From Geotalea daltonii FRC-32 (GTDB lineage Bacteria; Desulfobacterota; Desulfuromonadia; Geobacterales; Geobacteraceae), in contig NC_011979.1 of NCBI RefSeq assembly GCF_000022265.1, positions 180,001-212,000 on the forward strand: a stretch of 32,000 nt of DNA, read 5' to 3'. Positions within the stretch are counted from its first letter, which is position 1. Each line of letters begins with the position of its first letter. The position numbers and the translations under genes were made by a program. Shown here in pieces: positions 6,554-29,318 of this stretch. The notes below the pieces were generated by a model that had not been told where the DNA came from, searched no databases, and saw only the letters and a program-made list of their open reading frames with translations.

Positions 6554-6554
6554 C

Positions 6555-7600: not shown

Positions 7601-7688
7601 GCTGTCCACTTTTGTAATTTGTAGATCCCTCTTATCCGTATTCCGCCGCAGACCTTACCTTAGGGTTGTCCAACTTCTCACTCTTATT

Positions 7689-7865: not shown

Positions 7866-7976
7866 GTGGTCTCCTCCAGAAAAATTTATGATATTTTGCA
7901 GCGGCTATTTTATATTCCAACGGATCTGGCCCTGATCTCCCATTTAGAGCCCTTTGTTCTACAGAAATTGTTCACA

Positions 7977-8006
7977 TTCATACACCCCCGGAAGCGATAG
8001 TGTCAA
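7977..8006 (-). promoter_or_regulatory. Sigma-70-type promoter candidate upstream of the lipoprotein ORF
   Basis: Minus-strand TTGACA (8006-8001), 18-nt spacer, TATGAA (7982-7977). Confidence 0.3.
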
Positions 8007-10180: not shown

Positions 10181-10500
10181 TGGCCTTCCTCCTTGCTGAT
10201 CAGCTCCAGCAGCTCTTTGGTAAGGGGGTCAAATTCATTGTTGGATTTGCGGGTGTAGTAAATGGCGATGCCCCAGGCCAGCACGAACTGAAAGAGGCAA
10301 AACAGATAACCGAAATTGAGTCTGCCGATGATCCTGGTGTTGAAGAGTCCGGGTGCAGATATCGCACCGATCAGGACAAGGAAATACGAGGCCGCGCCCA
10401 CCAGCCACAAGCCCACTAGAAACCGCATCTTTGCCCGGTGCAATTCCACGAATTTCGGATGGTTGGCTACTGCTGCCCAATTTATTTTCATTTCCGTCAC
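10177..10500 (-). CDS. yjcH: DUF485 inner-membrane protein (YjcH-like partner of ActP)
   Basis: Two-TM ~100-aa protein with the ...YYTRKSNNEFDPL motif. Translationally coupled to actP. GTG start with GGAGGA SD. Confidence 0.85.
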   Translation of the reverse strand: MTEMKINWAAVANHPKFVELHRAKMRFLVGLWLVGAASYFLVLIGAISAPGLFNTRIIGRLNFGYLFCLFQFVLAWGIAIYYTRKSNNEFDPLTKELLELISKEEGQ

Positions 10501-10609
10501 GTCATCCTCCTTGTTGTTACCTGCATCCCGCTGTTAAAATTGCGTCCGATTGTCCCCTGGTTCCGAAAGCACAACACCTCCTTCTTCGTAGTTTTAATAT
10601 GTTCATCCC

Positions 10610-10779
10610 GGCAGTCGCGACATCGTCCGTTCGCTCTGTCGCCACAGCTGCGGACCCTGCTGTACCGCCCGTGTAATGGTGCACGATGCTTGAATTGGCC
10701 GGTTGCTTCTCCGTTCCACATGGGGCGGGTGTCCGCTCGCCGCTGTAGCTCGTCGCTCTCTCCTGATGCCACGACTGCC
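10610..10779 (-). repeat. Structured intergenic repeat, family A, copy A1
   Basis: Conserved arms ...CGTCCGTTCGCTCTGTCGCCACAGCTGCGGACC... and ...GGCGGGTGTCCGCTCGCCGCTGTAGCTCG.... The 16-nt terminal segments are inverted repeats. Lies between panE-like and yjcH. Confidence 0.8.
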
Positions 10780-10841
10780 TTTTCGGGGGAGGTGTCTGAG
10801 GAACCTTTTAAAGCCTCGAAATTCGTCGGCGGCATCTTCAA

Positions 10842-11774
10842 TTACCTTGATTCGAGGGCCTTTACCAGCCCGCGGATCATGGTGTTGTAGGGGGTAGCCA
10901 TGCCGGCCTGGGCGCCGTATTCCACGATCTTGCCGTTGATGTAATCCACTTCAGTTCTGCGCCCGGCTTCGATGTCCTGGAGCATGGAAGGCTTATGGTT
11001 GCCGGCGTTCTTTATGTAGTTGACGCAGTAAGGATAGAAGTCTGAACCAAGAACGAATTCGTTGGCCCTGGCCACGGCTACCCCCTCCTTGATCAGGGAG
11101 TCGACCAGGTTGAAAAGGATCGGGTCGATGATGATCTCGATCATGGTCTTGCCGGTGACGGCGCAGATGGCGTTCATGCATGAGTTCATCACCGACTTGC
11201 GCCAGACCATGTCGGTGATGCGGTCGGTGTGACGGGTCTCCAGCCCGCAGTTGGTCAGGGCATCACAGATACCGATGGCCGCGTCCCTGGAATCGGGGTC
11301 CAATTCCTGGAGAAAGTGGGGCCGGTGATGGAAGGCTATTCGCACGTGGGCAGGGCTCAAAGGCACGCAACCGTAATTGACCACCGCCCGCATCACCGAT
11401 TTCCTGCCCAGGTGCTGGGCCAGGTCCAGTTCGGTATCGATGCCGTTTTGCCAGCTGACCACGTAGCGCCCTTCGCCGACAAAGTTTTCCAAGGCGGAGG
11501 CGATCAGAGGGATGGCGGTGGCCTTGACGGTGACGAAAATGACATCGGGTAGGTCGTTGACGATGTCATCAACACTGGTGGTAACCTTAGTTACTCTGGC
11601 TTGCAGCGAATCAACCCCTTCGATGATGATCCCTGGATTCAGGGCAGGTTCCAGGAGGCTCGACACAACGTCGCAGAGGGTGACCTCGTATCCCCCCTTG
11701 GCCAGGAACGCGGCAACGATAGCCCCTACGGGCCCTGCGCCGATGACGGCGAATTTTTTTGGCGAATAATTCAT
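10842..11774 (-). CDS. 2-dehydropantoate 2-reductase family protein (PanE/ApbA fold), possibly a 2-ketoacid/2-hydroxyacid reductase
   Basis: N-terminal Rossmann motif FAVIGAGPVGAIVAAFLAKGG. C-terminal KPSMLQDIEAGRRTEVDYING block typical of ketopantoate reductase family proteins. Confidence 0.85.
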   Translation of the reverse strand: MNYSPKKFAVIGAGPVGAIVAAFLAKGGYEVTLCDVVSSLLEPALNPGIIIEGVDSLQARVTKVTTSVDDIVNDLPDVIFVTVKATAIPLIASALENFVGEGRYVVSWQNGIDTELDLAQHLGRKSVMRAVVNYGCVPLSPAHVRIAFHHRPHFLQELDPDSRDAAIGICDALTNCGLETRHTDRITDMVWRKSVMNSCMNAICAVTGKTMIEIIIDPILFNLVDSLIKEGVAVARANEFVLGSDFYPYCVNYIKNAGNHKPSMLQDIEAGRRTEVDYINGKIVEYGAQAGMATPYNTMIRGLVKALESR

Positions 11775-11806
11775 GGGCGTAACTCCTTGGATGGATAAAG
11801 CGGTAG

Positions 11807-12265
11807 CTATACCGGGCGGGGACTTTCCACCATGCCGAAAGCCTCCGCATCGAGGATCTTGATGCCATTGTCCAGCATCAGTTCGATTGCCCGGTCGTTG
11901 TCGCTGAAGCGGAAGATCATCACTGCCTTGCCGGATGAAGGGCCGGTCCCGGCCAGGGCGTACATGTATTCCACGTTGACCTGGTAATCGAGAAAGAGCC
12001 TGAGCACATTATTGGCCAGGCTGCCGGGGGTATCATCAACCTCGATGGCAACGACATCGTCAACCCGCGCCGGCAGCTGCTTCTCCATGATCACCCGGCG
12101 GGCCTTGACCACATCGGAGACGAGGATGCGCAGCACGCCGAAGCCCGCAGTGTCGCAGATGCTGAGGGACTTCAGGTTGAGCCCTGCATCCCCCAGGGCT
12201 TTCGTCGCCTCATAGAGGCGGCCGGGAGAGTTTTCAAGAAAGACGGACAGTTGTTTCAGTTTCAT
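11807..12265 (-). CDS. ACT-domain protein (tandem ACT)
   Basis: QLSVFLENSPGRLYEATKALGDAGLNLKSLS and a second ACT-like half. This small protein commonly accompanies paaK-iorAB clusters. Confidence 0.8.
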   Translation of the reverse strand: MKLKQLSVFLENSPGRLYEATKALGDAGLNLKSLSICDTAGFGVLRILVSDVVKARRVIMEKQLPARVDDVVAIEVDDTPGSLANNVLRLFLDYQVNVEYMYALAGTGPSSGKAVMIFRFSDNDRAIELMLDNGIKILDAEAFGMVESPRPV

Positions 12266-12308
12266 GGGATCTCCCTTCTTATGTGTTTCATCGGACGGTT
12301 AAGTGAAC

Positions 12309-12479
12309 GACTGCCGCGACTTCGTCCGTTCGCTCGGTCGCCACAGCTGCGGACCTTGCACTGTTTGTTAATCTCCCCACTGGAGGATCAGCTTCCATGC
12401 GCTGGTGCCTTGTTCAGCTTCTGGCGGGTGTCCGCTCGCCGCTGCGGCTCTGTCACTCACTCCCGAAGCCGCGGCAGTC
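12309..12479 (-). repeat. Family A repeat, copy A2
   Basis: Same internal arms as A1. The terminal stem GACTGCCGCGACTTCG / CGAAGCCGCGGCAGTC pairs at 15 of 16 positions. Lies between iorB and the ACT gene. Confidence 0.8.
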
Positions 12480-12486
12480 AAATTGC

Positions 12487-13062
12487 TCAAGCTGCCTCAG
12501 CTCCGCCGCGAAGGGCGGCCAGATTGACTTCGACTCCCTTGTCCCGCGAGATTTCCCGGACCACTCCTTCGACGACAGTGGCATCGATGGGGAGCCCCTT
12601 CATCACCGAACCGACCATGACCATGTTGACCGCCTTGGCGTTGCCCGCTTCTTTGGCAATCTGCAGGGCGTCGATGCCGTGGGCTTCAGGGCAGCCCTTG
12701 GCTATTTGCGCCTCCACGTCGGTGGGGTAGGTGGCCAGCCCCGAAGCAACCGTGCTGGGGTTGATGGTGACGTTGTTGTAGACCAGCTTGCCTTTCGGCT
12801 TGAGGTAGTGCAGGTAGCGAAGGGCCTCAAGGGGCTCGAAGGAGATGAGGATATCGGCGGTACCGGGCATGACGACCGGGGAATGGACCTTGTCGCCGAT
12901 GCGGACGAAGGAGATGACGCTCCCTCCCCGCTGGGCCATGCCGTGAACCTCGTTCTGTTTCACATCCATACTGCTGGCCAGGGCGCTTTCTGCCAATACC
13001 CTGGAGGCCATGAGCACCCCCTGGCCCCCCACTCCGGCGATGACGATGTTAAATACTTTCAT
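12487..13062 (-). CDS. iorB: Indolepyruvate:ferredoxin oxidoreductase, beta subunit
   Basis: NIVIAGVGGQGVL motif and ~190 aa. Overlaps the iorA 3' end by 14 nt. Confidence 0.9.
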   Translation of the reverse strand: MKVFNIVIAGVGGQGVLMASRVLAESALASSMDVKQNEVHGMAQRGGSVISFVRIGDKVHSPVVMPGTADILISFEPLEALRYLHYLKPKGKLVYNNVTINPSTVASGLATYPTDVEAQIAKGCPEAHGIDALQIAKEAGNAKAVNMVMVGSVMKGLPIDATVVEGVVREISRDKGVEVNLAALRGGAEAA

Positions 13063-14821
13063 TGTTTCCTCCGGTCCCGACCACCGTCATGGCGTCGAAT
13101 TTACATTGCTGGGAGCAGACACCGCAGCCGTTGCAGATATTGGGGTCAATGGCGACCTTCGGCTTGTCGCCGGCAGCGGTCAGTCCCAGGGCGACGCACG
13201 AGACCTTGAGGCAGGCGCGACAACCGGTGCATTTTTCAGCAGAAACTGCCACCAGCGGCTTTTTCACCCGGTAGCGGAGGATGCAGGGATTTTTGTCCAC
13301 CAGGACATATGGCCCTGGAGTTTCCAATCCCTTCCTGATGGCGGCCTCGGTTGCCTGCAGATCATAGGAGTTGATCTCCACCACGTTGTCGATTCCCAGC
13401 ACCTTGACCAGATCCACCATGTCCACCTGTTTGGCCGCTTCCCCCTGGAGCAGCCTGCCGGAGCCGGGGTTTTCCTGGCCGCCGGTCATGCCGGTGGTGC
13501 GGTTGTCCATGATGATCACCAGGGCGTTGCCGCTGTTGTAGACCATGCTCAACAGGCCGGTGATGCCCGAGTGGAAGAAGGTGGAGTCGCCGATGACGGC
13601 CACCGGTTTTTCGGATCTGCCGGCAATCTCGTTGACCTTGGCCATGCCATGGGCGGCGCTGATGCTGGCCCCCATGCAGATGCAGGTATGCATGGCGCTC
13701 AGGGGGGGAAGAGCGCCCAGGGTGTAGCAGCCGATATCGCCGGAGACAAAGACCTTCAGCTTGCTAAGGATCGAATAGAGCCCGCGGTGGGCACAACCGG
13801 GGCAGAAGGTGGGGGGGCGCTGGGGGAGGTTCTCCACAGGGGCCGTGCTCACCGTAGTAACCACGGCCCCTGCCGCGGCCCGAATAAGGTCGGCATTAAC
13901 CTCGCCGCACAGGGAGATCCGATCCTTGCCCACATGGACCTCGATCCCCATGGCCCGGATCTGCTCCTCGAAGATGGCGTCCATCTCCTCGACGATCATC
14001 AGGCGACCGACCTGGCCGGCAAACTCCCGGATCTTCTTTTCCGGCAGCGGATGAACCAGCCCCAGTTTAAGGATGGAGGCGTTGGGAAAAGCCTCCTTCA
14101 CATGCTGGTAGGAAATGCCGGAGGTAATGATACCCAGTTCCGGATCCCCCATCTCCACCCGGTTGAGTGGCGTTGTCTCGGCATATGCCTGCAGCCTGAG
14201 CAGGCGCGCCTCCACTTCCACATGCTTGATCTTGCCGAAGTTGGGGAGCATGACGTATTTGGGGACATTTTTCACCCATTCGCCGACCTTCGGTTCGATT
14301 GCGCCTTTCGCTTCCACAATCCCCTTGGCATGGGAGATCCGGGTGGTGGTGCGCAGCATCACCGGCGTGTCGAACTGCTCGGAGAGCTCGAAGCCTGCCC
14401 GGACGAAATCATAGGCCTCCTGGGAGTCTGCAGGATCCAGCATCGGCACCTTGGCGAACTTCGCATAGTTCCTGCTGTCCTGCTCGTTCTGGGATGAGTG
14501 CATCCCCGGATCGTCGGCGGCCATCAGAATCAGCCCGGCATTGACACCGGTGTAAGTAAGGGTCATCAGCGCATCGGCGGCCACGTTGACCCCAACATGC
14601 TTCATGGTGGCCAGGGACCTGCCGCCGGCAAGTGATGCGCCGATGGCCGATTCGAGCCCGACCTTTTCATTGGGCGCCCACTCGCAGTAAACCTTGCCCA
14701 GGCGGGCCACCTCTTCCAGGGTCTCAGTGCTGGGCGTTCCCGGATAGCCGGAGGCGAAGATCCCGCCCGAATCCTGAAAGCTCAAGGCAATGGCTTCATT
14801 GCCGGAAATTATTTTCTTCAT
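13049..14821 (-). CDS. iorA: Indolepyruvate:ferredoxin oxidoreductase, alpha subunit (TPP- and 2x[4Fe-4S]-binding)
   Basis: MKKIISGNEAIA...GYPGTPSTE N-terminus. TPP region GDSTFFHSG. C-terminal ferredoxin motifs CTGCRAC...C and CNGCGVCSQQC. Confidence 0.9.
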   Translation of the reverse strand: MKKIISGNEAIALSFQDSGGIFASGYPGTPSTETLEEVARLGKVYCEWAPNEKVGLESAIGASLAGGRSLATMKHVGVNVAADALMTLTYTGVNAGLILMAADDPGMHSSQNEQDSRNYAKFAKVPMLDPADSQEAYDFVRAGFELSEQFDTPVMLRTTTRISHAKGIVEAKGAIEPKVGEWVKNVPKYVMLPNFGKIKHVEVEARLLRLQAYAETTPLNRVEMGDPELGIITSGISYQHVKEAFPNASILKLGLVHPLPEKKIREFAGQVGRLMIVEEMDAIFEEQIRAMGIEVHVGKDRISLCGEVNADLIRAAAGAVVTTVSTAPVENLPQRPPTFCPGCAHRGLYSILSKLKVFVSGDIGCYTLGALPPLSAMHTCICMGASISAAHGMAKVNEIAGRSEKPVAVIGDSTFFHSGITGLLSMVYNSGNALVIIMDNRTTGMTGGQENPGSGRLLQGEAAKQVDMVDLVKVLGIDNVVEINSYDLQATEAAIRKGLETPGPYVLVDKNPCILRYRVKKPLVAVSAEKCTGCRACLKVSCVALGLTAAGDKPKVAIDPNICNGCGVCSQQCKFDAMTVVGTGGNNESI

Positions 14822-14894
14822 GGACGCATATCCTTTCTGTGGCGTTCGGCCCCCTCAATGGGAAAGCCGAGGAAATGGAGTTCCGGTGATCTGA

Positions 14895-16238
14895 TCATTT
14901 CGGTCTGTTGTCTATGAACCGCTTGGCTTTGCCTTCACTGCGCGGGATGGTTCCGGGAGGCATCAGGGTAACCTTGACGGTGATGCCGACCACGTCCTTG
15001 ATGTCCCGCACCAGATTTTTGACGATATCCCGGGTTGCCCGGTCGTCGCTGACCCGCTGGTTTTGGCTGACCGTCATGGTCTCCGCCACATACTTGTAGG
15101 CATGCTGGTCCGTTACCTCGATCCTGACTTCAACCTCGTCCAGAGCCCCATTACGCTCAACGACAACCAGGTAATGGGGGGTGACACCAGGGTGCTTGAG
15201 GATTATCGATTCTATCTGGGACGGGAAAAAGTTGACCCCCCGGATAATCAACAGGTCGTCGGTGCGGCCGACCAGCTTTTTCATCTTGACCAGGGTACGG
15301 CCACAGGCACAAGACTCCTGGCTGAGGCTCGTCAGGTCGCGGGTCCGGTAGCGAAAGAGGGGCTGTCCCTCATTGGCGATGGTAGTGAAGACCAGCTCCC
15401 CCTCTTCGCCCAGGGGCAACACTTCCCCGGTCTCCGGGTTAATGATTTCGGGGTAGAAATAATCCTCATTGATATGAAGACCGTTGCGGGCTTCGTGACA
15501 TTCGCAGGCCACACCCGGCCCGATGATCTCGGACAGCCCGTAAATATCACAGGCCTTGATGCCGAAATCCTCCTGAATCTTGCCGCGCATGGAGTCGGTC
15601 CAGAATTCAGCCCCCAAGACGGCGGTACGCAGCTTGAGCTTTCTGAAATCAATTCCCATCTCGGTTCCCACTTCCTGGACATGCATGAGAAAGGAGGGGG
15701 TAACCGTCAAGGCGGTGGTGCCGAAATCCTGCATGAGCATGATCTGCTTTTGGGTGTTGCCACCGGAGATGGGTATGACGGCAGCTCCGATCTTGATGCC
15801 TCCGTAATGGGCTCCCAGTCCGCCGGTAAAAAGGCCGTAACCATAGATATTCTGCAGGACATCGTTCTTGGTTATACCGGCACTTGTCAGGCAGCGGGCC
15901 ATGACTTCGGACCAGGTATCCAGATCATTGCGGGTGTAGCCGACAATGATCGGTTTGCCGGTGGTTCCCGAAGTGGCATGGTATTCGACAACGTCCTCCT
16001 GTTTGGCGGTGAAGAGGTTGAATGGGTAGTTGTCGCGGATATCATCCTTGACGGTAAAAGGGAGTCTCCTGATATCGTCCAGGGTTTTGATCTGGGCGGG
16101 TTTCACTCCGTTTTCGTCGAGTCTTTTCCGGTAAACCGGATTATTGTCATAGACACGGCTGACAGTTTGCTGCAGCCGCCCCAGCTGAATACTCTTCATT
16201 TCGTTACGACTGCTGGTCTCAACATGGTTCCAGATCAT
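14895..16238 (-). CDS. paaK: Phenylacetate-CoA ligase family (AMP-forming aryl/acyl-CoA ligase)
   Basis: MIWN...LQLGRLQQTVSRVY N-terminus typical of PaaK. AMP-binding motif HATSGTTGKP. Confidence 0.9.
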   Translation of the reverse strand: MIWNHVETSSRNEMKSIQLGRLQQTVSRVYDNNPVYRKRLDENGVKPAQIKTLDDIRRLPFTVKDDIRDNYPFNLFTAKQEDVVEYHATSGTTGKPIIVGYTRNDLDTWSEVMARCLTSAGITKNDVLQNIYGYGLFTGGLGAHYGGIKIGAAVIPISGGNTQKQIMLMQDFGTTALTVTPSFLMHVQEVGTEMGIDFRKLKLRTAVLGAEFWTDSMRGKIQEDFGIKACDIYGLSEIIGPGVACECHEARNGLHINEDYFYPEIINPETGEVLPLGEEGELVFTTIANEGQPLFRYRTRDLTSLSQESCACGRTLVKMKKLVGRTDDLLIIRGVNFFPSQIESIILKHPGVTPHYLVVVERNGALDEVEVRIEVTDQHAYKYVAETMTVSQNQRVSDDRATRDIVKNLVRDIKDVVGITVKVTLMPPGTIPRSEGKAKRFIDNRPK

Positions 16239-16303
16239 GGTCTCACCCTCGTTTCTTGTGTGGGATCAATGCTAGGGTACGGCATAGTTTCCGCCGCCGT
16301 GGC

Positions 16304-16474
16304 CGCTGCCGCGACTTCGTCTGCTCGTTCGGTCGCCCCGGCTGCGGACCTTGCGCCGTCTTTCTATTTAATGGCTTAATGAGCTAGCTTCTGCCCGGTA
16401 TGCTCCGTTCTGCCTTCGGCGGGTGTCCGCTCGCTGCTGCGGCTCGGTCACTTACTCCCGAAGCCACGTCATCG
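16304..16474 (-). repeat. Family A repeat, copy A3 (most degenerate)
   Basis: Arms ...GCGACTTCGTCTGCTCGTTCGGTCGCCCCGGCTGCGGACC... and ...GGCGGGTGTCCGCTCGCTGCTGCGGCTCGG...CCCGAAGCCAC. Lies between hbd1 and paaK. Confidence 0.7.
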
Positions 16475-16488
16475 GCAACTGATGCAGC

Positions 16489-17358
16489 TCATTTTTCTTC
16501 AGAATAATCGTAGAAGCCTTTACCCGCCTTGCGTCCCACATAGCCCGCCTTGATCATGTTCCGCAAAAGGCCGGGAGCGGCGAAGCGCTCCTGCTTCATG
16601 TATTCGTGGAAGATGTTGATGACGTGGTAGCCGATGTCCACCCCCGCGAAATCCTGGAACTCCAACGGCCCCATGGGCATGTTGCAGCCGAGCTTCATGG
16701 CGGTGTCGATGTCCTCTGCCGATGCCACCCCTTCCTCAAGGAGCCGCACCGCGTCGATGATGTAGGGGACAAACAAACGGTTGACGACGAAGCCGGGGGT
16801 GTCCTTGCAGGTGATGGCAGTCTTGCCGATCTTTTTCGCCATCTCCAGGGCGAGATCTTTGGTGGCGGGTGCGGTCTGCAGGGCCGGGATCACCTCCACC
16901 AGTTTCATCACCGGCACCGGGTTGAAGAAGTGCATGCCGATGAAGTTGGCCGGGTTCTTCACCAGGGCCGCCATTTCGGTGATGGAGATGGAAGAGGTAT
17001 TGGTGGCGTAGATGGTATCGTCGCCGCAGACGGCATCCAGTTTAGCGAACAGTTCCTTTTTGACATTGATATCCTCGAAGACCGCCTCGAAGATGAAAGG
17101 TACGTCTTTGAGGCTCGCCACGTCGGTGGAGAAGCTGATCCTTCCCAGGGTCTCCTCCATCTCCTTCTCGGTGATGGTCCCCTTCTTCACCACCCGCTCC
17201 AGGCTCTTGACGATAGTCTTCTTCGCCCGTCCCCAGACCTCTTCGCTCATATCCACCACTTTCACCTGCAGACCGGCCATGGCGGCAATCTGGGCAATGC
17301 CGGCCCCCATGCTCCCTGCTCCTGCCATACCTACTGTTTTGATATCTTCAAGTTTCAT
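16489..17358 (-). CDS. hbd: 3-hydroxybutyryl/3-hydroxyacyl-CoA dehydrogenase, copy 1
   Basis: VGMAGAGSMGAGIAQ NAD fold. Typical Hbd length and C-terminal domain. Confidence 0.9.
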   Translation of the reverse strand: MKLEDIKTVGMAGAGSMGAGIAQIAAMAGLQVKVVDMSEEVWGRAKKTIVKSLERVVKKGTITEKEMEETLGRISFSTDVASLKDVPFIFEAVFEDINVKKELFAKLDAVCGDDTIYATNTSSISITEMAALVKNPANFIGMHFFNPVPVMKLVEVIPALQTAPATKDLALEMAKKIGKTAITCKDTPGFVVNRLFVPYIIDAVRLLEEGVASAEDIDTAMKLGCNMPMGPLEFQDFAGVDIGYHVINIFHEYMKQERFAAPGLLRNMIKAGYVGRKAGKGFYDYSEEK

Positions 17359-17399
17359 TGTCTGTTCTCCTCATATGGTTTAGTCAAAAAACTTGGTTA

Positions 17400-17504
17400 G
17401 CCACGAATGAAAGAAGCAGTTGTCGCGTCCCCCTTTAAGAAAGGGGGGTAACTTCCAATGTTTGTTTTCGATTTTCATTCGTGTTCATTCGTGTAATTCG
17501 TGGC
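17400..17504. repeat. Nested palindromic element (family B) with a CCCCCTTT-AAG-AAAGGGGG hairpin core
   Basis: Outer inverted repeat GCCACGAATGAA ... TTCATTCGTG (twice in tandem) ... ATTCGTGGC. Inner hairpin at 17429-17448. Lies between crt1 and hbd1. Confidence 0.6.
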
Positions 17505-17521
17505 AAAAGATGCTTTTAGGG

Positions 17522-18304
17522 TTATTCGTTCTTGAACTCCGGCCTTCTCTTCTCCACAAAAGCGGTCAGCCCTTCCTTGGCATCGTGGGTCTTGCTGTTT
17601 TCCGCCGAATATTTGCGCTCCACGGCCAGGGCCTGCTCCAGGGGAAAGTCTATCCCCTCATAAACCGCAGCCTTGATGTAACCCAGGGCCTTGCCCGCTC
17701 CTGCGGCCAGTTCCTGGGCGAACTGCATCACTTCCGCCTGGAAGTTCTCCGGCTCGATCAGCTTGTCCACCAGGCCTATTGCCAAAGCTTCCTGGGGGCT
17801 CATGGTCCTGCCGCGCAGCAGAATGTCCAGGGCCTTGGACAGCCCCACCAGTCGCGGCAGCCGCTGGGTGCCACCGGCGCCGGGGATGATGCCGAGCCCT
17901 GCCTCAGGCAGGCCGATCAGCGCTTTGCCCGAGGTCATCAGTCGGTAGTCGCAGGCCAGGGCCAGTTCGCAGCCCCCACCCAGGGCATGGCCGTTGATGG
18001 CGGCGATGACGATCTTCTTCATGCGGTTGAGGATATTGTTGGCACCCTGCAGGAGCTTGGAGAACTGTTCCGCTTCGGCGGCATCCTGGGCCGCCATCTC
18101 CTTTATATCGGCCCCGGCGATGAAGGCCTTTTCCAGGGCGCTGGTGATGATGACCACGGTAATATCTTCCATCTGCTCGGCTTCGCTGAAGGCCTTGAAC
18201 AGCTCCTGACCGAACACGCCGTTCAAGGGATTGGTGGGGGGACGGTTGAGGCTGATGGTCAGGACGCGGTCGTCCTTTTTCAGGGTTATGAATTCGTAAG
18301 ACAT
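17522..18304 (-). CDS. crt: Enoyl-CoA hydratase (crotonase family), copy 1
   Basis: AAINGHALGGGCELALACD oxyanion-hole/active-site block; 260 aa. Confidence 0.9.
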   Translation of the reverse strand: MSYEFITLKKDDRVLTISLNRPPTNPLNGVFGQELFKAFSEAEQMEDITVVIITSALEKAFIAGADIKEMAAQDAAEAEQFSKLLQGANNILNRMKKIVIAAINGHALGGGCELALACDYRLMTSGKALIGLPEAGLGIIPGAGGTQRLPRLVGLSKALDILLRGRTMSPQEALAIGLVDKLIEPENFQAEVMQFAQELAAGAGKALGYIKAAVYEGIDFPLEQALAVERKYSAENSKTHDAKEGLTAFVEKRRPEFKNE

Positions 18305-18366
18305 GGTAGTGCTCCTGTAGTTAAGGATGGTTCCCTTAAGGGATTGAGGGGATTTGCCTCTAGTAC

Positions 18367-18533
18367 GGCAGTCGTGGCATCGTCCGTTCGTTCTGTCGCC
18401 ACAGCTGCGGACCTTGCGGTGCCGCCCGTGTAATTATGCACATTTTTGAAGTGGCATTTCCCCTTTGTTCAACATGCGGCGGGTGTCCGCTCGCCGCTGT
18501 GGCTCGTCACTCACTCCCGATGCCACGACTGCC
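18367..18533 (-). repeat. Family A repeat, copy A4 (best-paired copy)
   Basis: Perfect 16-bp terminal stem GGCAGTCGTGGCATCG / CGATGCCACGACTGCC. Inner stems GCCACAGC/GCTGTGGC and GCGGAC/GTCCGC. Lies between the thiolase1 stop and the crt1 start. Confidence 0.85.
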
Positions 18534-18561
18534 TGCTCCAACAGTGTGCCTGGTAATCCTG

Positions 18562-19752
18562 TCAGCTCACCTTCAGCACAACCGATGCAGCGGTATCCCC
18601 GGCGGCGCAGCCGGAGAAAAGGAGATACCCTCCACCCTTGACTGCCAGTTCCTCGATCCCTTCGATCATCAATCGAGCCCCCGTTGCTGCCTGGGGATGG
18701 CCGAAGATCAGGGAGGAGCCGTAGTTGTTCATGTTGTTCAGATCCAGCCCCATGACCTTAGCCATGACGATGTCGTTGGCGGCGAAGGGATTGTGGGTCT
18801 TGACGGCCCCCAGGTCTTTGACCTTGATGCCTGCTTGATCCAGCGCCATCTGGGCTGAGGGAGCGACGGCTGCCGCCATGTGCGCCTTTTTGGTGCGGGC
18901 GTAGCCGAAAGAGACCACCTGGATCTCGATGCCGGGGTTGGTGCTCAGTTCCTTTGCCTTCTCCCGGGTGGTGACGCAGATACCGGCATTGCCATCGGCG
19001 GGATGGGTCTGGGCGCCGAAGGTATGCACTCCATCGGGAAGCACCGGCTTGAGTGTGGCCAGCCCTTCCCTGGTGCTGGTAGTTATCCCTTCATCGGCTT
19101 CCAGGAGAATCGATTTCTTTTTGGAGATCTGTACCTCCGCGGGAAACATGTAGCGTTGCTGGAACTCCCGATCCCTGGCCAGGGCATCCAGATACTGCTC
19201 CTGCCGCCGCAGGGTGACGGCATCGCATTCTTCGCGGCTGACACCGTACTCTTTGGCCACGTTTTCCGCCGTCTGGATCATGGCTCCCCCGGCCCAGGGA
19301 TCCCTGCCGAAGTTGTCCATGACCCAGTCCTCGGCAAGCTGCTGTCCGCCGGGACCGTTGGGATTGGGCCAGACGGCATGGGGACCGTTAGAGAGCCGGT
19401 CCGCCATGAGGCACCAGCTGTGATTGAACAAGCCGGTTTCTACCCCCATGCCCGCCTGGTAAATAGCGAAGGTGGAGGTGGAGCAGGCCTGGCTGACGAG
19501 GATGCCGGGGGAAGCCTCCGCCCCCATCAGGGCAGCGGCCCAAGGGCCTGAGTAGAACCACTGTTTCTGGTAGACGGTGCTGCCGACCAGGACATAGTCG
19601 ATGGTCTTCGGGTCCCACCCCTTGCTCTCGAAAAATCGCTTCGAGGTGGCGGCTCCGAGAACGATGGCGTTTTCGTTGGCCAGGGTTCCCTGCCACTTGG
19701 CGAAGGGGGTGCTGTAGTAACCGCGGTAGGGGATATAGGCTTTTTGCAACAT
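18562..19752 (-). CDS. Thiolase family acyl-CoA C-acyltransferase, copy 1
   Basis: Active-site blocks QACSTS (nucleophilic Cys), GHPQAATGARL (His) and SGCAAGD (second Cys); 396 aa. Confidence 0.9.
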   Translation of the reverse strand: MLQKAYIPYRGYYSTPFAKWQGTLANENAIVLGAATSKRFFESKGWDPKTIDYVLVGSTVYQKQWFYSGPWAAALMGAEASPGILVSQACSTSTFAIYQAGMGVETGLFNHSWCLMADRLSNGPHAVWPNPNGPGGQQLAEDWVMDNFGRDPWAGGAMIQTAENVAKEYGVSREECDAVTLRRQEQYLDALARDREFQQRYMFPAEVQISKKKSILLEADEGITTSTREGLATLKPVLPDGVHTFGAQTHPADGNAGICVTTREKAKELSTNPGIEIQVVSFGYARTKKAHMAAAVAPSAQMALDQAGIKVKDLGAVKTHNPFAANDIVMAKVMGLDLNNMNNYGSSLIFGHPQAATGARLMIEGIEELAVKGGGYLLFSGCAAGDTAASVVLKVS

Positions 19753-19793
19753 TGGTGTTCCTCCTTATGTAAATGCTTGGGTCTATTACAAGT

Positions 19794-19876
19794 CCCCCTT
19801 TATGAAAGGGGGATTTAGGGGGATTAGCTTTGGTCACCGATCGAAATCCCCCCTGCCCCCCTTTCGCAAAGGGGGG
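19794..19876. repeat. Three consecutive G5/C5 hairpins (family B-like) in the acs-thiolase spacer
   Basis: CCCCCTTT-ATG-AAAGGGGG at 19794-19812. GGGGGATT...AATCCCCC at ~19817-19853. CCCCCCTTT-CGC-AAAGGGGGG at 19856-19876, ending 4 nt from the acs stop codon. Confidence 0.6.
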
Positions 19877-19880
19877 TAAC

Positions 19881-21968
19881 TTAGATCCTGATCCTGCCGT
19901 CCACGGCAAAGGCGCCGTCTGCGAAAGCCATCAGCGGATTCATGTCCATCTCCTGGATCATGGGCAGATCGCCGAGCAGTTGGGAGGCGCGCTGGATGAT
20001 GTTCATTACCGCTTCCCTATTGATCCCCTTCTCACCGCGAACACCGTTCAGCAGCGCTGCAGTTCGGAGTGAGGAGAGCATCTCCTCCGCTTCGACCTGT
20101 GTCACCGGGGCAATCTTGAAAGAAACATCCTTGAGTACCTCCACGTAAATCCCACCCAGGCCGAACATCACCAGGTGCCCCAATCCCCGTTCGGCGGTGG
20201 CGCCGATGATCAGTTCCCTGCCGCCGGGAAGGAATTTCTGCACGAAGAACTTAAGCGTGCCGAAGTGACCCAGGCGGCGCTGCATATCCTCGACCGTCGC
20301 CTGCACCGAGGCGGCGTCCTTGAGATTGACGGCCACTCCCCCCATGTCGCTCTTATGGTCGATTGCCTCGCAGTCCACCTTGACCACCACCGGGTAGCCG
20401 ATCCGGTCTGCGGCGGCAACCGCTTCGGCTGTGTTTACCGTGACGCCCCAGCCCGCCACCGGTATGCCGTAGGCCTCGAAGATGGTGTAGACATCGGTGG
20501 CTGAAAGGACACTCCGTCCGGCCTGGCGGGCCTCTTCGACGATGGCCCGGGCCTTTGCCGCATCCACATTGGCGAACGTCTGCGGTTTGCCGATGTCACG
20601 CTGCTTCAGCCGGCCGTACCTGGTCAGGGCGCCCATGGCCTTGGCGGCGTCGCTGGGATTGGCATAGAAGGGGACCCCTCCCTTTTTGAGAATATCCCGG
20701 GTGATTTGGTACCGTTCCTGGCTCAGGTCGGTCATGAAGTTGCAAACGATCGGCTTTTTGCCCAGCCTGCTGACTTCGACGATCTGCCGGGCCACCTCGT
20801 GGGTGTCGGTGAAGGGGGCGGTGACGAAATTTATGAAAATGCTGTCCACTCCTTCCTCATGGAGGAGCACGTCAAGGGCGCCGCGGAACTGGGGACCGCC
20901 GGCGGTGGCAACAACATCGATGGGGTTTTCCAGTGCGGCCTCGGGAAACTGGCTTTCCTTCAGGCGCTCGATGGATCTTTCCGAGAGCTTCGGCACGTCC
21001 AGCCCGCAGGAGACGAGCACGTCGGTGGCGATGACCGCCGGCCCGCCGGTGTTGGTGATGATGCCGACCCGGTTTCCCTTGGGAATGGGCTGGGTGGCGA
21101 AGGCCATGGCAGCCCGCGCCATCTCCCCCTCGTCGGTGAAGGAGAGGATGCCGGTCTTCTCGAAAATCAGTTCGGTCGCTATGTCCACCCCGGCCAGGGA
21201 GCCGGTATGGGAGGAGGCCGCCTTGGCGCCCTGTTCGGTGCGCCCTGCCTTCATGGCCAGAATCGGTTTTTTTGCGGTTACTTGATGGGCAGCCTCAAGG
21301 AATGCTTTTGGGTCGGAGAATCCTTCCGTATAGAGGATCACTGCCTTGGTCCCCTCGTCTGCGCCGTAATAGCGGACGATCTCGGGGATGGAAATATCGC
21401 AGGCATTGCCGTTGGAGGCATAGAGACGCTGGCCGACCCCCAGATCCGCCAGGGCCTGCATGATCAGGGCGCCGACACCCCCACTCAAGGCCACCACTGA
21501 GACATAGCCGGGCTCGGGATAGGTAAAGGTGAAGTTGCAGTACGCCTTCAGTTCGGGATCGGAGTTGATGATTCCCTGGCAGTTGGGACCGAATACCCGC
21601 ACCCCATACTCCTTGCCCCGGCGCAGGAAATCCTCCTGGAGGCGTGCTCCCTCCTCACCCAGCTCGCTGAAGCCGGCAGAGTTGATGATGACCGCCTTGA
21701 TTCCTTTCCTGCCGCAATCCTCGATGGTCTGCGGCACGAATTTACTGGGAATGATCACGTGGGCTAAATCCACCTCTCCCGGGATCTCCTCCAGGGTTTT
21801 GTAGGCCTTGATGCCGCACACCTCCGGTGCAGTTGGGTTCAGGGGATAGATCTCTCCCTTGTAGCCGTACTTCTGCAGGTTGCGGATGATGACGTTGCCG
21901 ATGGAGAGCTCCTTGGTGGAAGCGCCGACAATGGCGACGGCCCGTGGTTTGAAAAGTGAATCCAGCAT
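19881..21968 (-). CDS. ADP-forming acyl-CoA synthetase (fused alpha/beta: CoA-binding, ligase-CoA and ATP-grasp domains)
   Basis: N-terminus LFKPRAVAIVGAS...YPLNP (CoA-binding). ~695 aa fused architecture typical of NDP-forming acetyl/aryl-CoA synthetases. Start is 2 nt after the upstream stop (TAG-CC-ATG). Confidence 0.9.
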   Translation of the reverse strand: MLDSLFKPRAVAIVGASTKELSIGNVIIRNLQKYGYKGEIYPLNPTAPEVCGIKAYKTLEEIPGEVDLAHVIIPSKFVPQTIEDCGRKGIKAVIINSAGFSELGEEGARLQEDFLRRGKEYGVRVFGPNCQGIINSDPELKAYCNFTFTYPEPGYVSVVALSGGVGALIMQALADLGVGQRLYASNGNACDISIPEIVRYYGADEGTKAVILYTEGFSDPKAFLEAAHQVTAKKPILAMKAGRTEQGAKAASSHTGSLAGVDIATELIFEKTGILSFTDEGEMARAAMAFATQPIPKGNRVGIITNTGGPAVIATDVLVSCGLDVPKLSERSIERLKESQFPEAALENPIDVVATAGGPQFRGALDVLLHEEGVDSIFINFVTAPFTDTHEVARQIVEVSRLGKKPIVCNFMTDLSQERYQITRDILKKGGVPFYANPSDAAKAMGALTRYGRLKQRDIGKPQTFANVDAAKARAIVEEARQAGRSVLSATDVYTIFEAYGIPVAGWGVTVNTAEAVAAADRIGYPVVVKVDCEAIDHKSDMGGVAVNLKDAASVQATVEDMQRRLGHFGTLKFFVQKFLPGGRELIIGATAERGLGHLVMFGLGGIYVEVLKDVSFKIAPVTQVEAEEMLSSLRTAALLNGVRGEKGINREAVMNIIQRASQLLGDLPMIQEMDMNPLMAFADGAFAVDGRIRI

Positions 21969-21970: not shown

Positions 21971-23218
21971 CTAATTACCCTCCTCAAGCTGTTCGATAAA
22001 AGCTTCGACATTGGTTTTGGTCTGTTCATCGGAAACGCAGCGCATGTCGTTGAGATCGCCGGAAATAACCAGGTGGGGAATGCCGGTTTCTCTTTCGAGA
22101 CGCTGGTGCAGCCCGTAACGGCTGTTTGAGTTGTAGGGACAGGTCTTGGCGTCGTGATAGATAATGCCGTCGATGGCGAATTTGTTGAGCATGGCCTTGA
22201 TATAACCTTCCTTGTAGGTGTCGGAGCGGACGATGAAGAGTTCCAGATATGCTTTAGCCATGCTGCGTAAGGGATCACTGTCGTCGAAGGCCGGGAAGAT
22301 CCAGCTGCTGCAGTAGGTGGAGGCGACAACGCCTGTCCCGAGACCGGAAAAAAGCTCCGAATGCTGGCGCAGCCGCCCCCAGATCGGCATGCCGTCCCAG
22401 TAGATACGGAAAGCTTCCCCCTCCACGGCCCCCACACCAGCAGAAATCCTCTGGCGCAGTTCGGCCAGCAGAACCTGGTAATAGCCAACAGCTTCCTGGG
22501 TTCCCCGCAGGACGACCGCCGGTCCCATGTGGATGGTACCGTCAAAGAAGGTCAGCGGGGCAGGCGATGCCGTGGCTGTCTCCAGGACCTCCTTCCACAA
22601 TTGGGTGCACTCCCGGGAAAGGGCCACCGTTTCCCGGAGCCTGGCCATATCCAGCCTCGTTCCGGTGATCTGCTCCAGTATGGGGATCAGGGCCTCGATC
22701 TGACCGGCAACATCGTTGATGTGGGCGGCAGTTACTTCATTGACATTCTTGGGAGAGGTAATACCGATGCAGGGGACCTTGAATTCCCTTGCATACCAGG
22801 CAAACCAGTCCTGCACGTCGCGACACTGGTTGGTGTTGTAAACCAGGACATCGGGTTTGGGTACGGACTCAATACCCGGATAAGCCTTGGCCAGAGGGGT
22901 GAACCCTTTCAGGTAGGCGCCGATGTCCGAGGTGAGGTAGGAACAGATGTCGGGGGAGTAGCCGATGGCTGTCGCCTCCGGTATCAGGTCCGTTGCCAGC
23001 CGCGTCGCCCCGAGCATGGCGGCATGATTCTCCGGAAAATGCACGGCAAAGCCCATGGCCCGCAGCAGTTCCGCCGGACCTACACTGGTGCACCAGGCAA
23101 CCTTCTGCTTTCCGGTGGTGGCGGATTCATTCAAGCCGAAGAAATAGTCAGCCATGATTTTGTTCATCAGGTCGGTGGCCTGGATCTTTTTTCTCACTGT
23201 CTTGCTCTCTTCAGCCAT
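21971..23218 (-). CDS. Single-subunit HgdB/BcrB/BadD-family Fe-S protein (2-hydroxyacyl-CoA dehydratase D-component-like; possibly double-cubane-cluster-type)
   Basis: Family-typical blocks KVAWCTS, SPDICSY, NTNQCRD, STYCSSW, DAKTCPYNS. I prefer the start at 23218 (M19 of the track ORF) because AAGGAG lies 6 nt upstream and it overlaps the activator stop as ATGGCTGA. This gives 415 aa. Confidence 0.85.
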   Translation of the reverse strand: MAEESKTVRKKIQATDLMNKIMADYFFGLNESATTGKQKVAWCTSVGPAELLRAMGFAVHFPENHAAMLGATRLATDLIPEATAIGYSPDICSYLTSDIGAYLKGFTPLAKAYPGIESVPKPDVLVYNTNQCRDVQDWFAWYAREFKVPCIGITSPKNVNEVTAAHINDVAGQIEALIPILEQITGTRLDMARLRETVALSRECTQLWKEVLETATASPAPLTFFDGTIHMGPAVVLRGTQEAVGYYQVLLAELRQRISAGVGAVEGEAFRIYWDGMPIWGRLRQHSELFSGLGTGVVASTYCSSWIFPAFDDSDPLRSMAKAYLELFIVRSDTYKEGYIKAMLNKFAIDGIIYHDAKTCPYNSNSRYGLHQRLERETGIPHLVISGDLNDMRCVSDEQTKTNVEAFIEQLEEGN

Positions 23219-24011
23219 TGCTGTCTCCTTGAGATCTGTCATCCAAAGCATAGAGGGCGGCGCCGATGGCACCTGTCAGTTGTGGGAACGGGGGCAGCAT
23301 GACCGGGCGGCCGATCATCTCTTCCGTCATTCGGACGATGTGGGGGTTGTGGGCTACGACCCCTCCGGTCATGACAACGTGCTCAGTCAGGGATTCCATT
23401 TCCAGAACCCTTTTGATCACCGAATAGAAGATCCCCTTGACGATATCGGCAACTTTTTTGCCATGGCGGATACTCTCCAGAACCTCCGTACCGGAAAAAA
23501 CGGTGCAGAAGCTGCCAAGTTTGACCATTTCCTCGGATTGGCCGGCCAATTCATTCATCTTTTCCAGGGGAAGATCGAGACGGGCAGCCATCTCTTCAAG
23601 AAAAGCCCCGGTGCCGGCGGCGCACTTGCGGTTCATTTTGAAGCTGCTGCGTTTGCCGGCACTGTCCAGCTTGATGATCTTGTTGTCCTGACCGCCGATG
23701 TCGATGATGGAGAGCTCACCGGAAAAGTAATGACGGCAGCCATTGGCCAGACAGCCGATTTCCGTCTTGCTTGTTTCGGTGATAAAGGGAACATTGGCTC
23801 TGCCGTAGCCGGTGGTAACAGCCCGTGCCACCTGGGGGCGGGTCGCTCCTGCCATCTCCATGGAAATGTCCAGACAGGCAGCGGCTGTTACGGAAAAATC
23901 GGTCCCGGACTTTTTGACGGCATGGCCGAGCAGAGTGCCTTTCCCGTCTATGACAGCAACCTTTGTTCTTGATGCTCCTATGTCCAGCCCGATAAAAACA
24001 GGATTGGTCAT
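23211..24011 (-). CDS. HgdC/BcrA/BadF-type ATPase (activator/reductase of the adjacent Fe-S protein)
   Basis: ASKHA-fold motifs GLDIGASRTKV and DIGGQDNK. Cluster-bridging Cys contexts NRKCAAGTGAFLE and GSFCTVFSGTEV, as in 2-hydroxyglutaryl-CoA dehydratase activator. Confidence 0.9.
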   Translation of the reverse strand: MTNPVFIGLDIGASRTKVAVIDGKGTLLGHAVKKSGTDFSVTAAACLDISMEMAGATRPQVARAVTTGYGRANVPFITETSKTEIGCLANGCRHYFSGELSIIDIGGQDNKIIKLDSAGKRSSFKMNRKCAAGTGAFLEEMAARLDLPLEKMNELAGQSEEMVKLGSFCTVFSGTEVLESIRHGKKVADIVKGIFYSVIKRVLEMESLTEHVVMTGGVVAHNPHIVRMTEEMIGRPVMLPPFPQLTGAIGAALYALDDRSQGDSNG

Positions 24012-24391: not shown

Positions 24392-26371
24392 TTACGGGGT
24401 TTCAGCTGACAGATGTCTTCTTCTGATGCCTAATTTCTTCATTCTGGAGTTGAGAGTTGTCGGTTTCATGCCGAGGATCTCGGCAGCGCCATTCCTGCCC
24501 CGGATGCGCCAGCCGGTCTTTTCCAGGACAGAGTTGATGTGCATCCGCTCCATTCCCTCTATGGTCATGGGTTGAGCGGTGGCAGCTGAGACACCATCCT
24601 GAATATCCATCACCAGTGATGCACCATTGTTGAGAATCATGGCCCTTTCTACAAGATTTCTCAGTTCCCTGATATTTCCCGGCCAGTGGTAGCGCTCCAT
24701 GGCGTCCATGTTCTTCTTGGGAATGCGCTCGATGGTTTTGCCGAAGACTTTGCCGAATTCCTCAACCATAGCCCAGACGAGCAGGGGAATATCTTCCCGC
24801 CGCTCGCGCAACGGCGGAACCGAAATGGGGAACACGTTGAGCCGGTAGTAAAGATCTTCGCGAAAGGTTCCCTCTTTGACTGCCTGAACAAGGCTCTTGT
24901 TTGTGGCAGCGATAACGCGCACATCCACCTTGATGGGTTTAGGGTTGCCCAGCCGCTCGAACTGGCCCTCTTGAATGACCCGCAGTAGTTTGGACTGCAG
25001 TTCCAGGGGTAGTTCGCCGATTTCATCGAGAAAAATGGTCGAGCCATTGGCGGCCTCGAAGCGGCCGATCTGGGTGGAGACGGCTCCTGTATACGCTCCT
25101 TTTTCATGACCGAACAGTTCCGCTTCGATAAGTGCTCCGGGCAGTGCGGCGCAATTGACCTTAATCATTGCCCGTGCCATACGGGGGCTTGCATTGTGGA
25201 TCGCCCTGGCTATCAGTTCTTTGCCGGTACCGGTTTCACCCAGGATAAGCACCGTGGAACCGGTACTCGCCACCTGCTTGATCTGGACAAGGACGTTCCG
25301 GATGGCATCTGATTTGCCGATGATTTCCTCATGTTTGTATTCCACGTGGATCTGGTCACGGAGATAAACGTTCTCAGCCTCCAGGCGGTCCTTCAGTTGC
25401 TTGATCTCCGCCAGGGCATTTTGAATTTTCTGATCGGCCCGCTTACGTTCCAGGGCATTGGCAAAGATTTCCCACAACAGGCGGAGTCTTTGGGTAAGCT
25501 CATCGGGCCATTCTCTTTTGACCCGGTATGAAACGAAAGTGATGGCACCGACAATGATGCCGCCGATGCTTGCCGGGATAAACATGATAGATTTTATGCC
25601 CCCCTGATCCTTGCAGTACTTTTTTTCGCTCCAGAATCGGTCAGGCAGTTCATCGATATCGGAAACGCGAAAAGTTTCTCCCCCGTGGATCATGCTGATC
25701 CAGACCGGTATCAGGCCGACAATGGTCGGTGGCGGCTGTTTGATCCCGGGCATGGCGAAAGAATGGGTGATATGTAAACTGTTGCCGTCGGGTGAGAGAT
25801 GCCAGATGCTGCAACGCTCGAATCCCAGGAACTCAACCAGTTTCTGCAGCCCTTCCTCGATTTTTCGGTCAACTTCACTCACCGACAGATTGATGAAGGC
25901 GGAGGAAAGGTTGGAGAGAAAAGCCTCCACTTGCAGTCGTTCTGCCTGAACGCTTTCTTTTATCTTTTGCTCGGTGATATCCTGGACTATCAACCCACAG
26001 CGATAAACTGTTCCATCGTTGCTCATAAGGGGATAAGAGCAGACCAGCCAGAACTTTTCCTGGATAGACCGGTCCGGAAGGGGCTTGTGCACAACCAGTT
26101 CAAGATCCACAAACGCCCGGCCTTCGGTAATGGTGCGGGATACTACCGGCTCCACAGCCCGGGCGATCATCTGATCGACCTCCCTCAGCGTCCGGCCCGC
26201 ATGGTCCTTTACCGGCAGATCGGTCATGGTTGCCATTCGATCATTGATGGCTATGTAGCGCAAGCCGCAATCGATGATGGCAATACCGAACTGGTTCAGT
26301 TCGAACAACTGTTCAAGGTTGTTGAATATGTCTTCACCCTTGCTTGGCGCAGAATTGAATGTGGCATTCAT
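24392..26371 (-). CDS. Sigma-54-dependent transcriptional activator with PAS and GAF sensor domains
   Basis: AAA+ motifs [21 protein letters not shown] and [11 protein letters not shown]-terminal [25 protein letters not shown]-terminal PAS-like and GAF-like regions. I prefer the start at 26371 (GGAAGG SD). Confidence 0.9.
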
Positions 26372-28407: not shown

Positions 28408-29277
28408 CTATTTTTCTTCCGAATAATCGTAGAACCCTCTGCCCGCCTTGCGTCCCACATAGCCCGCCTTGATCATGTTCCGCAAAAGGCCGGGAGCGGC
28501 GAAGCGCTCCTGCTTCATGTATTCGTGGAAGATGTTGATGACGTGGTAGCCGATGTCCACCCCCGCGAAATCCTGGAACTCCAGCGGCCCCATGGGCATG
28601 TTGCAGCCGAGCTTCATGGCGGTGTCGATGTCCTCTGCCGATGCCACCCCTTCCTCAAGGAGCCGCACCGCGTCGATGATGTAGGGGACAAACAAACGGT
28701 TGACGACGAAGCCGGGGGTGTCCTTGCAGGTGATGGCGGTCTTGCCGATCTTTTTCGCCATATCCAGGGCGAGATCTTTGGTGGCGGGTGCGGTCTGCAG
28801 GGCCGGGATCACCTCCACCAGTTTCATTACCGGCACCGGATTGAAGAAGTGCATGCCGATGAAGTTGGCCGGGTTCTTCACCAGGGCCGCCATTTCCGTG
28901 ATGGAGATCGACGACGTATTGGTGGCGTAGATGGTGTCGCTGCCGCAGACGGCATCCAGTTTAGCGAACAGTTCCTTTTTGACATTGATATCCTCGAAGA
29001 CCGCCTCGAAGATGAAAGGTACGTCTTTGAGGCTCGCCACGTCGGTGGAGAAGCTGATGCGGGCGATGGTCTCCTCCATCTCCTTCTCGGTGATGGTCCC
29101 CTTCTTCACCACCCGCTCCAGGCTCTTGACGATAGTCTTCTTCGCCCGTCCCCAGACCTCTTCGCTCATATCCACCACTTTCACCTGCAGACCGGCCATG
29201 GCGGCAATCTGGGCAATGCCGGCCCCCATGCTCCCTGCTCCTGCCATACCTACTGTTTTGATATCTTCAAGTTTCAT
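28408..29277 (-). CDS. hbd: 3-hydroxyacyl-CoA dehydrogenase, copy 2
   Basis: 289 aa. Differs from copy 1 at only 5 residues. Confidence 0.9.
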   Translation of the reverse strand: MKLEDIKTVGMAGAGSMGAGIAQIAAMAGLQVKVVDMSEEVWGRAKKTIVKSLERVVKKGTITEKEMEETIARISFSTDVASLKDVPFIFEAVFEDINVKKELFAKLDAVCGSDTIYATNTSSISITEMAALVKNPANFIGMHFFNPVPVMKLVEVIPALQTAPATKDLALDMAKKIGKTAITCKDTPGFVVNRLFVPYIIDAVRLLEEGVASAEDIDTAMKLGCNMPMGPLEFQDFAGVDIGYHVINIFHEYMKQERFAAPGLLRNMIKAGYVGRKAGRGFYDYSEEK

Positions 29278-29318
29278 TGTCTGTTCTCCTCATATGGTTT
29301 AGTCAAAAAACTTGGTTA

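Follow-up and report, generated by a model that had tools for sequence, protein, structure and literature searches.

A family of long palindromic repeats, five copies of which lie in a 32,000-nucleotide stretch of the Geotalea daltonii FRC-32 genome (hereafter the window), is most probably a non-autonomous DNA transposon that inserts into A/T-rich targets with a 9-bp staggered cut, the copies in the window being its old relics. The element is shorter than about 500 bp, non-coding and dispersed in multiple copies, as MITEs are, and we favour the MITE-type reading because of its terminal inverted repeats, the target duplications of about 9 bp, the presence/absence polymorphism of its insertions among related genomes, and an orthologous site that is occupied in opposite orientations. 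The same features, together with the mixed orientation of the copies relative to the surrounding genes, speak against the first-pass annotation of this DNA, which had taken the repeats for an RNA element inside polycistronic mRNAs rather than a DNA-level repeat.

The five copies, here termed A1 to A5, are all located on the + strand where they had originally been placed, each in a spacer flanked by minus-strand genes. A1 (10601-10804, subfamily I), first described by its core at 10610-10779, lies between the PanE-like gene and the DUF485 gene. Both of its outer ends are recognisable (GTTCATCC... / ...GTCTGAGGAAC), an A-rich segment is deleted on its left side, and TTTTAA is present in both flanks, at 10592-10597 and 10806-10811. 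A2 (12286-12479, subfamily II, core first given as 12309-12479) has the stems GACTGCCGCGACTTCG / CGAAGCCGCGGCAGTC and a left outer remnant, TTTCATCGG, at 12286; its right outer end is unrecognisable, and 8 nt separate the end of the copy from the IorB stop codon. A3 (16304-16476, core first given as 16304-16474), situated between the Hbd and PaaK-like ligase genes, is a degenerate member of subfamily II, in which about 13/17 positions of the outer stem are paired and the inner stem contains mismatches; its fold is the weakest, with -56 to -58 kcal/mol. A4 (18367-18533, subfamily I), between the thiolase and crotonase genes, has a perfect 16-bp stem. Its nhmmer match covers 18348-18557, and with diverged outer ends it may extend over 18329-18559.

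A5 (30286-30452) is identical to A4 and is located inside a duplicated or converted tract, in which 16542-18628 and about 28461-30547, at a spacing of 11919, are near-100% identical and which comprises hbd, crt and the element, whereas the adjoining thiolase genes share only 75-85% identity. The tract, which stops some 70 nt beyond A3 on one side and some 95 nt beyond A4 on the other, has the appearance of a recent gene conversion or duplication. Since A4 and A5 are identical because both lie in it, the window contains four independent copies, not five, and the two should not be counted as independent evidence. The four independent copies all point the same way, each beginning 5-40 nt behind an upstream stop codon. 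The products of the genes in the window include ActP, a DUF485 protein, a PanE-like reductase, an ACT protein, the subunits of indolepyruvate:ferredoxin oxidoreductase, a PaaK-like ligase, Hbd, crotonase, thiolase, an ADP-forming acetyl-CoA synthetase, 2-hydroxyacyl-CoA dehydratase with its activator, a sigma-54 activator and acyl-CoA dehydrogenase.

For the family search, an exact 22-mer from the conserved right arm was compared with a collection of species-representative genomes. It occurs at 43 loci, 42 of which belong to Geotalea sp. SG265, G. toluenoxydans, a Geobacter MAG and a deltaproteobacterial MAG, while the one in Cellulomonas was rejected as a chance match. Counted by genome, there are about 28 such loci in Geotalea sp. 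SG265, 8 in G. toluenoxydans and 4 in the Geobacter MAG, besides the 5 in the window. With an nhmmer profile built from the 22-mer loci, 56 distinct copies were identified in the window and the 43 loci (L001-L043). The copies have a G+C content of 57-64%, and the intact ones are 214-222 nt long, the truncated ones 167-204 nt.

The architecture that had been proposed was recovered, with its 16-nt stem, pyrimidine-rich bubbles and variable apex and with GCCACAGC/GCTGTGGC and GCGGAC/GTCCGC as inner stems, but the element continues past the 16-nt stem. In intact relatives it reaches about 25-30 nt beyond this stem on either side, and the ends are imperfect inverted repeats (GGTTCATCCGGGAA... / ...CTGAAGAAC or ...GAAATGTCTGAAGAAC). 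The outer ends pair end to end, so that the whole element is a single long imperfect palindrome or hairpin; at L030, for example, about 23 nt at both ends are paired with few mismatches. From outside to inside, the element thus consists of variable outer inverted ends, a stem of 16-17 bp whose sequence differs between the two subfamilies while its complementarity is kept, two pyrimidine-rich bubbles that are nearly invariant and non-complementary, two inner stems that are nearly invariant as well, and a free-running apex. As for the two stem types described before, A4 indeed pairs at 16/16 and A2 at 15/16 positions, with compensated differences; the stem of A1, however, is GGCAGTCGCGACATCG and not the A4 sequence ascribed to it, and the outer stem of A3 is degenerate. 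No conserved open reading frame was found in the copies, the sole ATG-led frame being located in the variable apex and missing from subfamily II, and the idea of a small peptide was rejected for want of a conserved frame. Two copies may also follow each other head to tail, as observed in G. toluenoxydans for a full and a partial copy (L019:3447-3656 and 3647-3726).

In minus sense, full subfamily-I copies such as those at L030:1688-1918 and L042:1455-1674 have a terminator-like U-rich tract, CCUUUUAUUUC, directly after the big stem, which is missing from the same-sense subfamily-I copies in tight operon spacers (A1, A4 and L003, with their orthologs). The loss of the A-rich tract, which would place a U-run behind the stem in the transcribed sense, shows a trend towards operon-internal copies that is not significant (3/9 vs 2/23 independent events).

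The flanks of the copies carry A/T-rich direct repeats of about 9 bp, often the T-tract of an intrinsic terminator. The best 9-nt match between the two flanks has a mean of 5.5; with the flanks permuted, it is 4.1 +/- 0.44 and never exceeds 5.33 in 200 permutations. At least 7/9 positions match in 7 of the 19 full copies where 2.4 are expected, although chance matches are inflated by the many targets that are homopolymer runs. Examples are the duplications of L030 (TTTTTTTTG, 9/9) and, with 8/9 each, of L042 (CTTGTTTAT/CTTGTTTTT), L017 and L036. The signal is strong in only about one third of the full copies and decayed in the others. More than 20 copies adjoin the T-tract of a terminator hairpin, and most targets are A/T runs.

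A second class of repeats, short C/G-run hairpins (CCCCCTTT..AAAGGGGG and CCCTCTCCC..GGGAGAGGG), was noted in other spacers of the same operons, at 17429-17454, 19794-19819, 19857-19882 and 29348-29373 of the window. In the relatives, these hairpins (L044:3780-4000, L048:3786-4000, L021:7347-7520 and L006:3636-3720) sit in exactly those spacers that hold the 170-nt element in the window, and palindromic repeats in general seem to land in the operon spacers of this clade. Elsewhere, an island of low G+C content was observed at 4001-8000 of the window (46-50%, vs about 57% elsewhere), with a 129-nt repeat (6385-6513 and 7450-7578, 98% identical), the recurring motif AAACCAGCAAACAACGTCCCC at 3521, 5312, 6488 and 7553, for which inverted partners are present, and two putative secreted proteins (5615-6346 and 6975-7364) without Pfam match. 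A 51-nt inverted match (76%) between 1-58 and 24644-24694 is not a repeat, but a conserved coding segment of two sigma-54 activator genes.

The genes around the copies are syntenic core metabolic genes in four relatives, and the presence of the copies varies at orthologous sites. The G. toluenoxydans locus L006 is syntenic with 8638-16809 of the window at about 90% identity; A1 (L006:1960-2177) and A3 (L006:7494-7674) are present there and A2 is absent. In the MAG locus L021, A2 is found as a head-to-tail tandem pair of full copies (L021:1267-1469 and 1476-1646), the A3 site is clean-empty, and A4 is replaced by a different, C-rich hairpin repeat. An ortholog of A4/A5 occurs in Geotalea sp. 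SG265 (L008), while A4 is absent from L021 and also from a second G. toluenoxydans assembly (L044) and the metagenome loci L046 and L048, the last three of which have the same thiolase-crt-hbd operon, and at one of these metagenome loci the spacer is just 31 nt long. In addition, one orthologous intergenic site just upstream of the window holds a copy in Geotalea sp. SG265 (L024:4470-4694) and, in the reverse orientation, in G. toluenoxydans (L035:358-588), so that either two insertions occurred independently at a hot spot or an inversion took place.

According to the transposon reading, a transposase supplied in trans would make the 9-bp staggered cut in A/T-rich targets. In genomes with about 57% G+C, such targets would mostly be the T-tracts of terminators and the few A/T-rich bases after stop codons, and this choice would make the copies pile up where genes end or converge, and hardly ever where they diverge. 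The four independent copies of the window would be old relics with truncated or decayed ends, fixed in the short spacers of operons for amino-acid and short-chain acyl-CoA catabolism, and three of these four would predate the split from a sister species. The integrity of the hairpin may be kept by selection on its single-stranded form, whether mRNA hairpin or extruded DNA, or by gene conversion between copies. Since the window relics begin no more than about 40 nt behind the stop codon upstream of them, and in view of the known effects of REPs, which can shield upstream mRNA from 3' exonucleases, their likeliest role would be, at most, that of 3' hairpins of the upstream cistrons.

Some observations fit the transposon reading less well. 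In about 350 kb around the copies, neither orphan ends outside the known copies nor a multicopy protein was detected, and hence no autonomous partner. Moreover, the conservation profile is unusual in that it is inverted with respect to a textbook MITE: the outer ends are the least conserved parts (35-52% pairwise identity, a value that is partly alignment noise), followed by the apex (42-69%), whereas identity in the bubbles and inner stems reaches 91-95% between copies and still amounts to 91-93% when the two subfamilies are compared. The 16-17-bp stems share only 67-88% identity, yet are still complementary. The arms differ at 15/420 positions (3.6%) in the four orthologous pairs, compared with 56/263 (21%) in the apex and 15-40% at the third codon positions of the neighbouring genes, that is, they evolve 5-8 times slower than either, and the probability of so few arm changes at third-position rates is 1e-4 to 1e-14 per pair. 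With the right core excluded, as it was ascertained by the search pattern, the stems and the left core still differ at 12/264 positions only (p = 4e-9 against the 56/263 of the apex). Between the A4 orthologs, the sole arm difference is one compensated pair, G-C to T-A. Such slow evolution is unlike the neutral decay of a dead transposon, and would be produced by purifying selection on the folded arms or by short-patch gene conversion among near-identical arms.

Then, could the fold itself be under selection? That the single-stranded fold of the arms is maintained in the fixed copies is in our view rather unlikely, though worth keeping in mind beside the transposon origin. We give a similarly tentative place to a takeover of some copies by the host, in which a sequence-specific partner, either a protein or an RNase, would act on the folded single strand. 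This would explain the near-invariant bubbles and inner stems, the slow arms, the G-C to T-A change in the A4 ortholog and the strand-specific pairing. If true, the strand concerned may be an mRNA 3' hairpin tuning how stable the cistrons of catabolic operons are relative to one another or, alternatively, a DNA hairpin whose orientation is coupled to replication.

The first-pass annotation went further and regarded the family as a selected RNA structure in polycistronic mRNAs, serving in processing, stability or attenuation or as an sRNA, and not as a DNA-level repeat; on the whole evidence this is improbable. The compensatory stem changes on which it drew are real, since both sides have changed in 17 of 33 pairs, far above the controls (shuffles gave 8.6 +/- 1.1 and slid controls no more than 8). 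A selected RNA would account for them, but compensated arms are also expected for a transposon with matching ends or for a single-stranded DNA hairpin. The slow arms of the orthologous copies and the better pairing and folding on the mRNA-sense strand of the window likewise agree with an RNA. A4 folds with -81.9 kcal/mol on the minus strand and -79.5 kcal/mol on the plus strand (z about -7 against shuffles); among the full copies, whose folds range from -80 to -106 kcal/mol, the minus-sense strand folds better in 16 of 17 (-91 vs -82 kcal/mol). Of 1742 cells in 53 family members, 96.7% are standard pairs when read on the minus-sense strand and only 89.8% when read on the + strand, because A.C outnumbers G.T there.

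The A-C bias that had been noted among the mismatches is thus present, with A.C and G.T in the ratio 139:17 on the + strand, but five inherited polymorphic pairs account for 111 of the 139 A.C cells, and the private mismatches, with 25 A.C vs 16 G.T (p = 0.21), have no significant G-U bias. Therefore, the asymmetry belongs to the master sequences of the family. Private mismatches that track the direction of transcription (12:6 vs 2:5) are suggestive but not significant, and they are confounded with transcription-coupled mutation. It should also be noted that at a C.A mismatch either transition restores a pair, and therefore 'repairs' at such positions do not prove selection. The strand asymmetry says that one single strand matters, RNA or DNA alike. 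G.T is the most stable DNA mismatch, and therefore the asymmetry does not single out RNA. Consequently, a constrained hairpin, a better fold in the mRNA sense of the window and slowly evolving arms remain of the original claim of selection, while its restriction to RNA as opposed to DNA falls.

The positions of the copies bear on the RNA reading as well. Its proponents could point to the shared orientation of the four independent window copies shortly after stop codons, but four out of four gives p = 0.125, and the single orientation relative to transcription does not hold for the family. Genes in the loci were called by a codon-usage caller trained on the loci, with some errors (most long minus-strand ORFs of the window were recovered, 23211-24011 and 28408-29277 were missed, and the flanks in L021 were miscalled). 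Among the 51 copies classified in this way, 16 lie between co-directional genes in the window-like sense and 11, transcribed in the opposite sense, between co-directional genes; 23 lie between convergent genes, usually beside a terminator, and 1 between divergent genes. Orientation is thus decoupled from transcription, close to the equal mix that the first-pass annotation itself had set against its reading. In tight co-directional spacers the window-like sense leads with about 10 vs 3 independent events, which is in favour of an RNA but not significant (p about 0.09). The absence of copies from the same operons of close relatives, as well as the target duplications and inverted ends, also argue against an RNA element. 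Besides, no match to Rfam 15 was found at the gathering threshold in the whole window, and a consensus scan of 10000-20000 for promoters and terminators gave none inside the copies, with counts equal to those of shuffles.

A further explanation dispenses with any role of RNA and attributes the constraint to a strand-specific single-stranded DNA hairpin tied to replication, through either insertion or host tolerance. Of 48 independent copies in the window and L001-L043, 35 have the + strand of the element on the G-rich strand of the surrounding DNA (p = 0.002); counted per locus, the figure is 26 of 38 (p = 0.03), and the regression has an intercept of +0.016 (t = 3.4) with coding-strand bias allowed for. 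The link suggests an orientation preference relative to replication; orientation tracks the skew more closely than it tracks transcription, and the stability of G.T lets the strand asymmetry fit DNA equally well. However, the 8-kb GC skew is a noisy proxy for the direction of replication, the strand with the better fold would be the template for leading-strand synthesis and thus the one least exposed in single-stranded form, and the target duplications favour an enzyme of double-strand cut-and-paste or copy-paste type over a single-strand transposase. We consider this explanation as doubtful as that of a selected RNA. An extragenic palindrome of REP/BIME type spread by a RAYT (Y1) transposase would also be intergenic, palindromic, G+C-rich, multicopy and positioned at gene ends, but is extremely improbable here and effectively refuted by the unit size of 170-220 nt instead of 20-40 nt and by the flanking direct repeats, apart from the lack of a visible conserved GTAG-like head, the single copies in place of the alternating clusters typical of BIMEs, and the lack of a Y1 gene among the 20 window proteins scanned.

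For annotation, the non-autonomous transposon as the preferred reading means that 'MITE-type repeat' is the appropriate label for the five stretches and for dozens of others in Geotalea genomes, in place of candidate riboswitch or sRNA. The family illustrates how terminator T-tracts and operon spacers can be colonised by a small transposon while the operons are left unbroken. It also offers a clean case for asking why fixed copies keep their arms, be it by selection on an mRNA hairpin, by strand-specific DNA effects tied to replication, or by gene conversion. Finally, it calls for caution, since a multicopy palindrome may have compensatory changes and a G-U asymmetry, and these alone do not demonstrate a functional RNA.

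Among RNA families and known mobile elements, several candidates were set aside. The only match at E <= 1 in 10500-18700, to a norovirus element, is due to chance (20 bits), and a scan for tRNA and tmRNA found nothing. An integron attC site or cassette array was rejected, as the ends GGTTCATC/GATGAACC miss the RYYYAAC ... GTTRRRY pattern and the flanking genes are syntenic. A full-text search of the literature with sequence strings of the element returned unrelated matches only, and the literature on Geobacter repeats contained just general statements on multicopy intergenic sequences in other Geobacter species.

The element shares its way of life with several well-known bacterial repeats. REP/BIME sequences are likewise G+C-rich extragenic hairpins found after stop codons, but with units of 20-40 nt, a link to RAYT and no target duplication, in contrast to the Geotalea unit of 170-220 nt with its direct repeats. 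The ERIC/IRU sequences of enterobacteria, of about 127 nt, are also imperfect palindromes in transcribed intergenic regions, with an internal conserved core and presence/absence variation; they have no clear target duplication or known mobility, occur in another phylum and are unrelated in sequence. ERIC sequences are classed as MITEs in PMC3184786. The Correia elements (NEMIS) of Neisseria are MITEs of 100-160 nt that, like the Geotalea element, are imperfect palindromes over their full length, form subfamilies, and occur at gene ends and inside operons, where they are co-transcribed as long hairpins (see PMC10969869). They differ in that they duplicate TA, contain an IHF site, have ends resembling promoters and are established substrates of RNase III, and their sequence is unrelated.

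The closest likeness is found within the genus. Chunjie of G. uraniireducens Rf4 (Chen et al., 2008, Genetics 179:2291) is described in PMC3184786 and PMC10969869 as an element of 178-235 bp with 21-bp inverted ends and 9-bp direct repeats, inserted into A/T-rich targets and present in 38 full and 57 partial copies, one of which lies inside an operon; its template copy is given as 219 bp in PMC6042816. As far as these descriptions go, size, 9-bp duplications and A/T-rich targets match those of the Geotalea element, and both form very stable hairpins that are mostly intergenic, include many partial copies and leave the operon unbroken. In contrast to the Geotalea copies, with 57-64% G+C and -80 to -106 kcal/mol, Chunjie is A+T-rich and folds with -98 to -130 kcal/mol, according to a review. 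No contig of G. uraniireducens is among the exact matches to the core 22-mer, assuming that the Rf4 genome is in the collection. Because this most conserved segment has no match in G. uraniireducens, the comparison, made by description and not by sequence, argues for a sister family or a diverged subfamily of Chunjie and against one and the same sequence family. The Geotalea element is a MITE-type repeat, similar in kind to Chunjie; apart from hairpin arms that are preserved unusually well, it is an ordinary kind of element.
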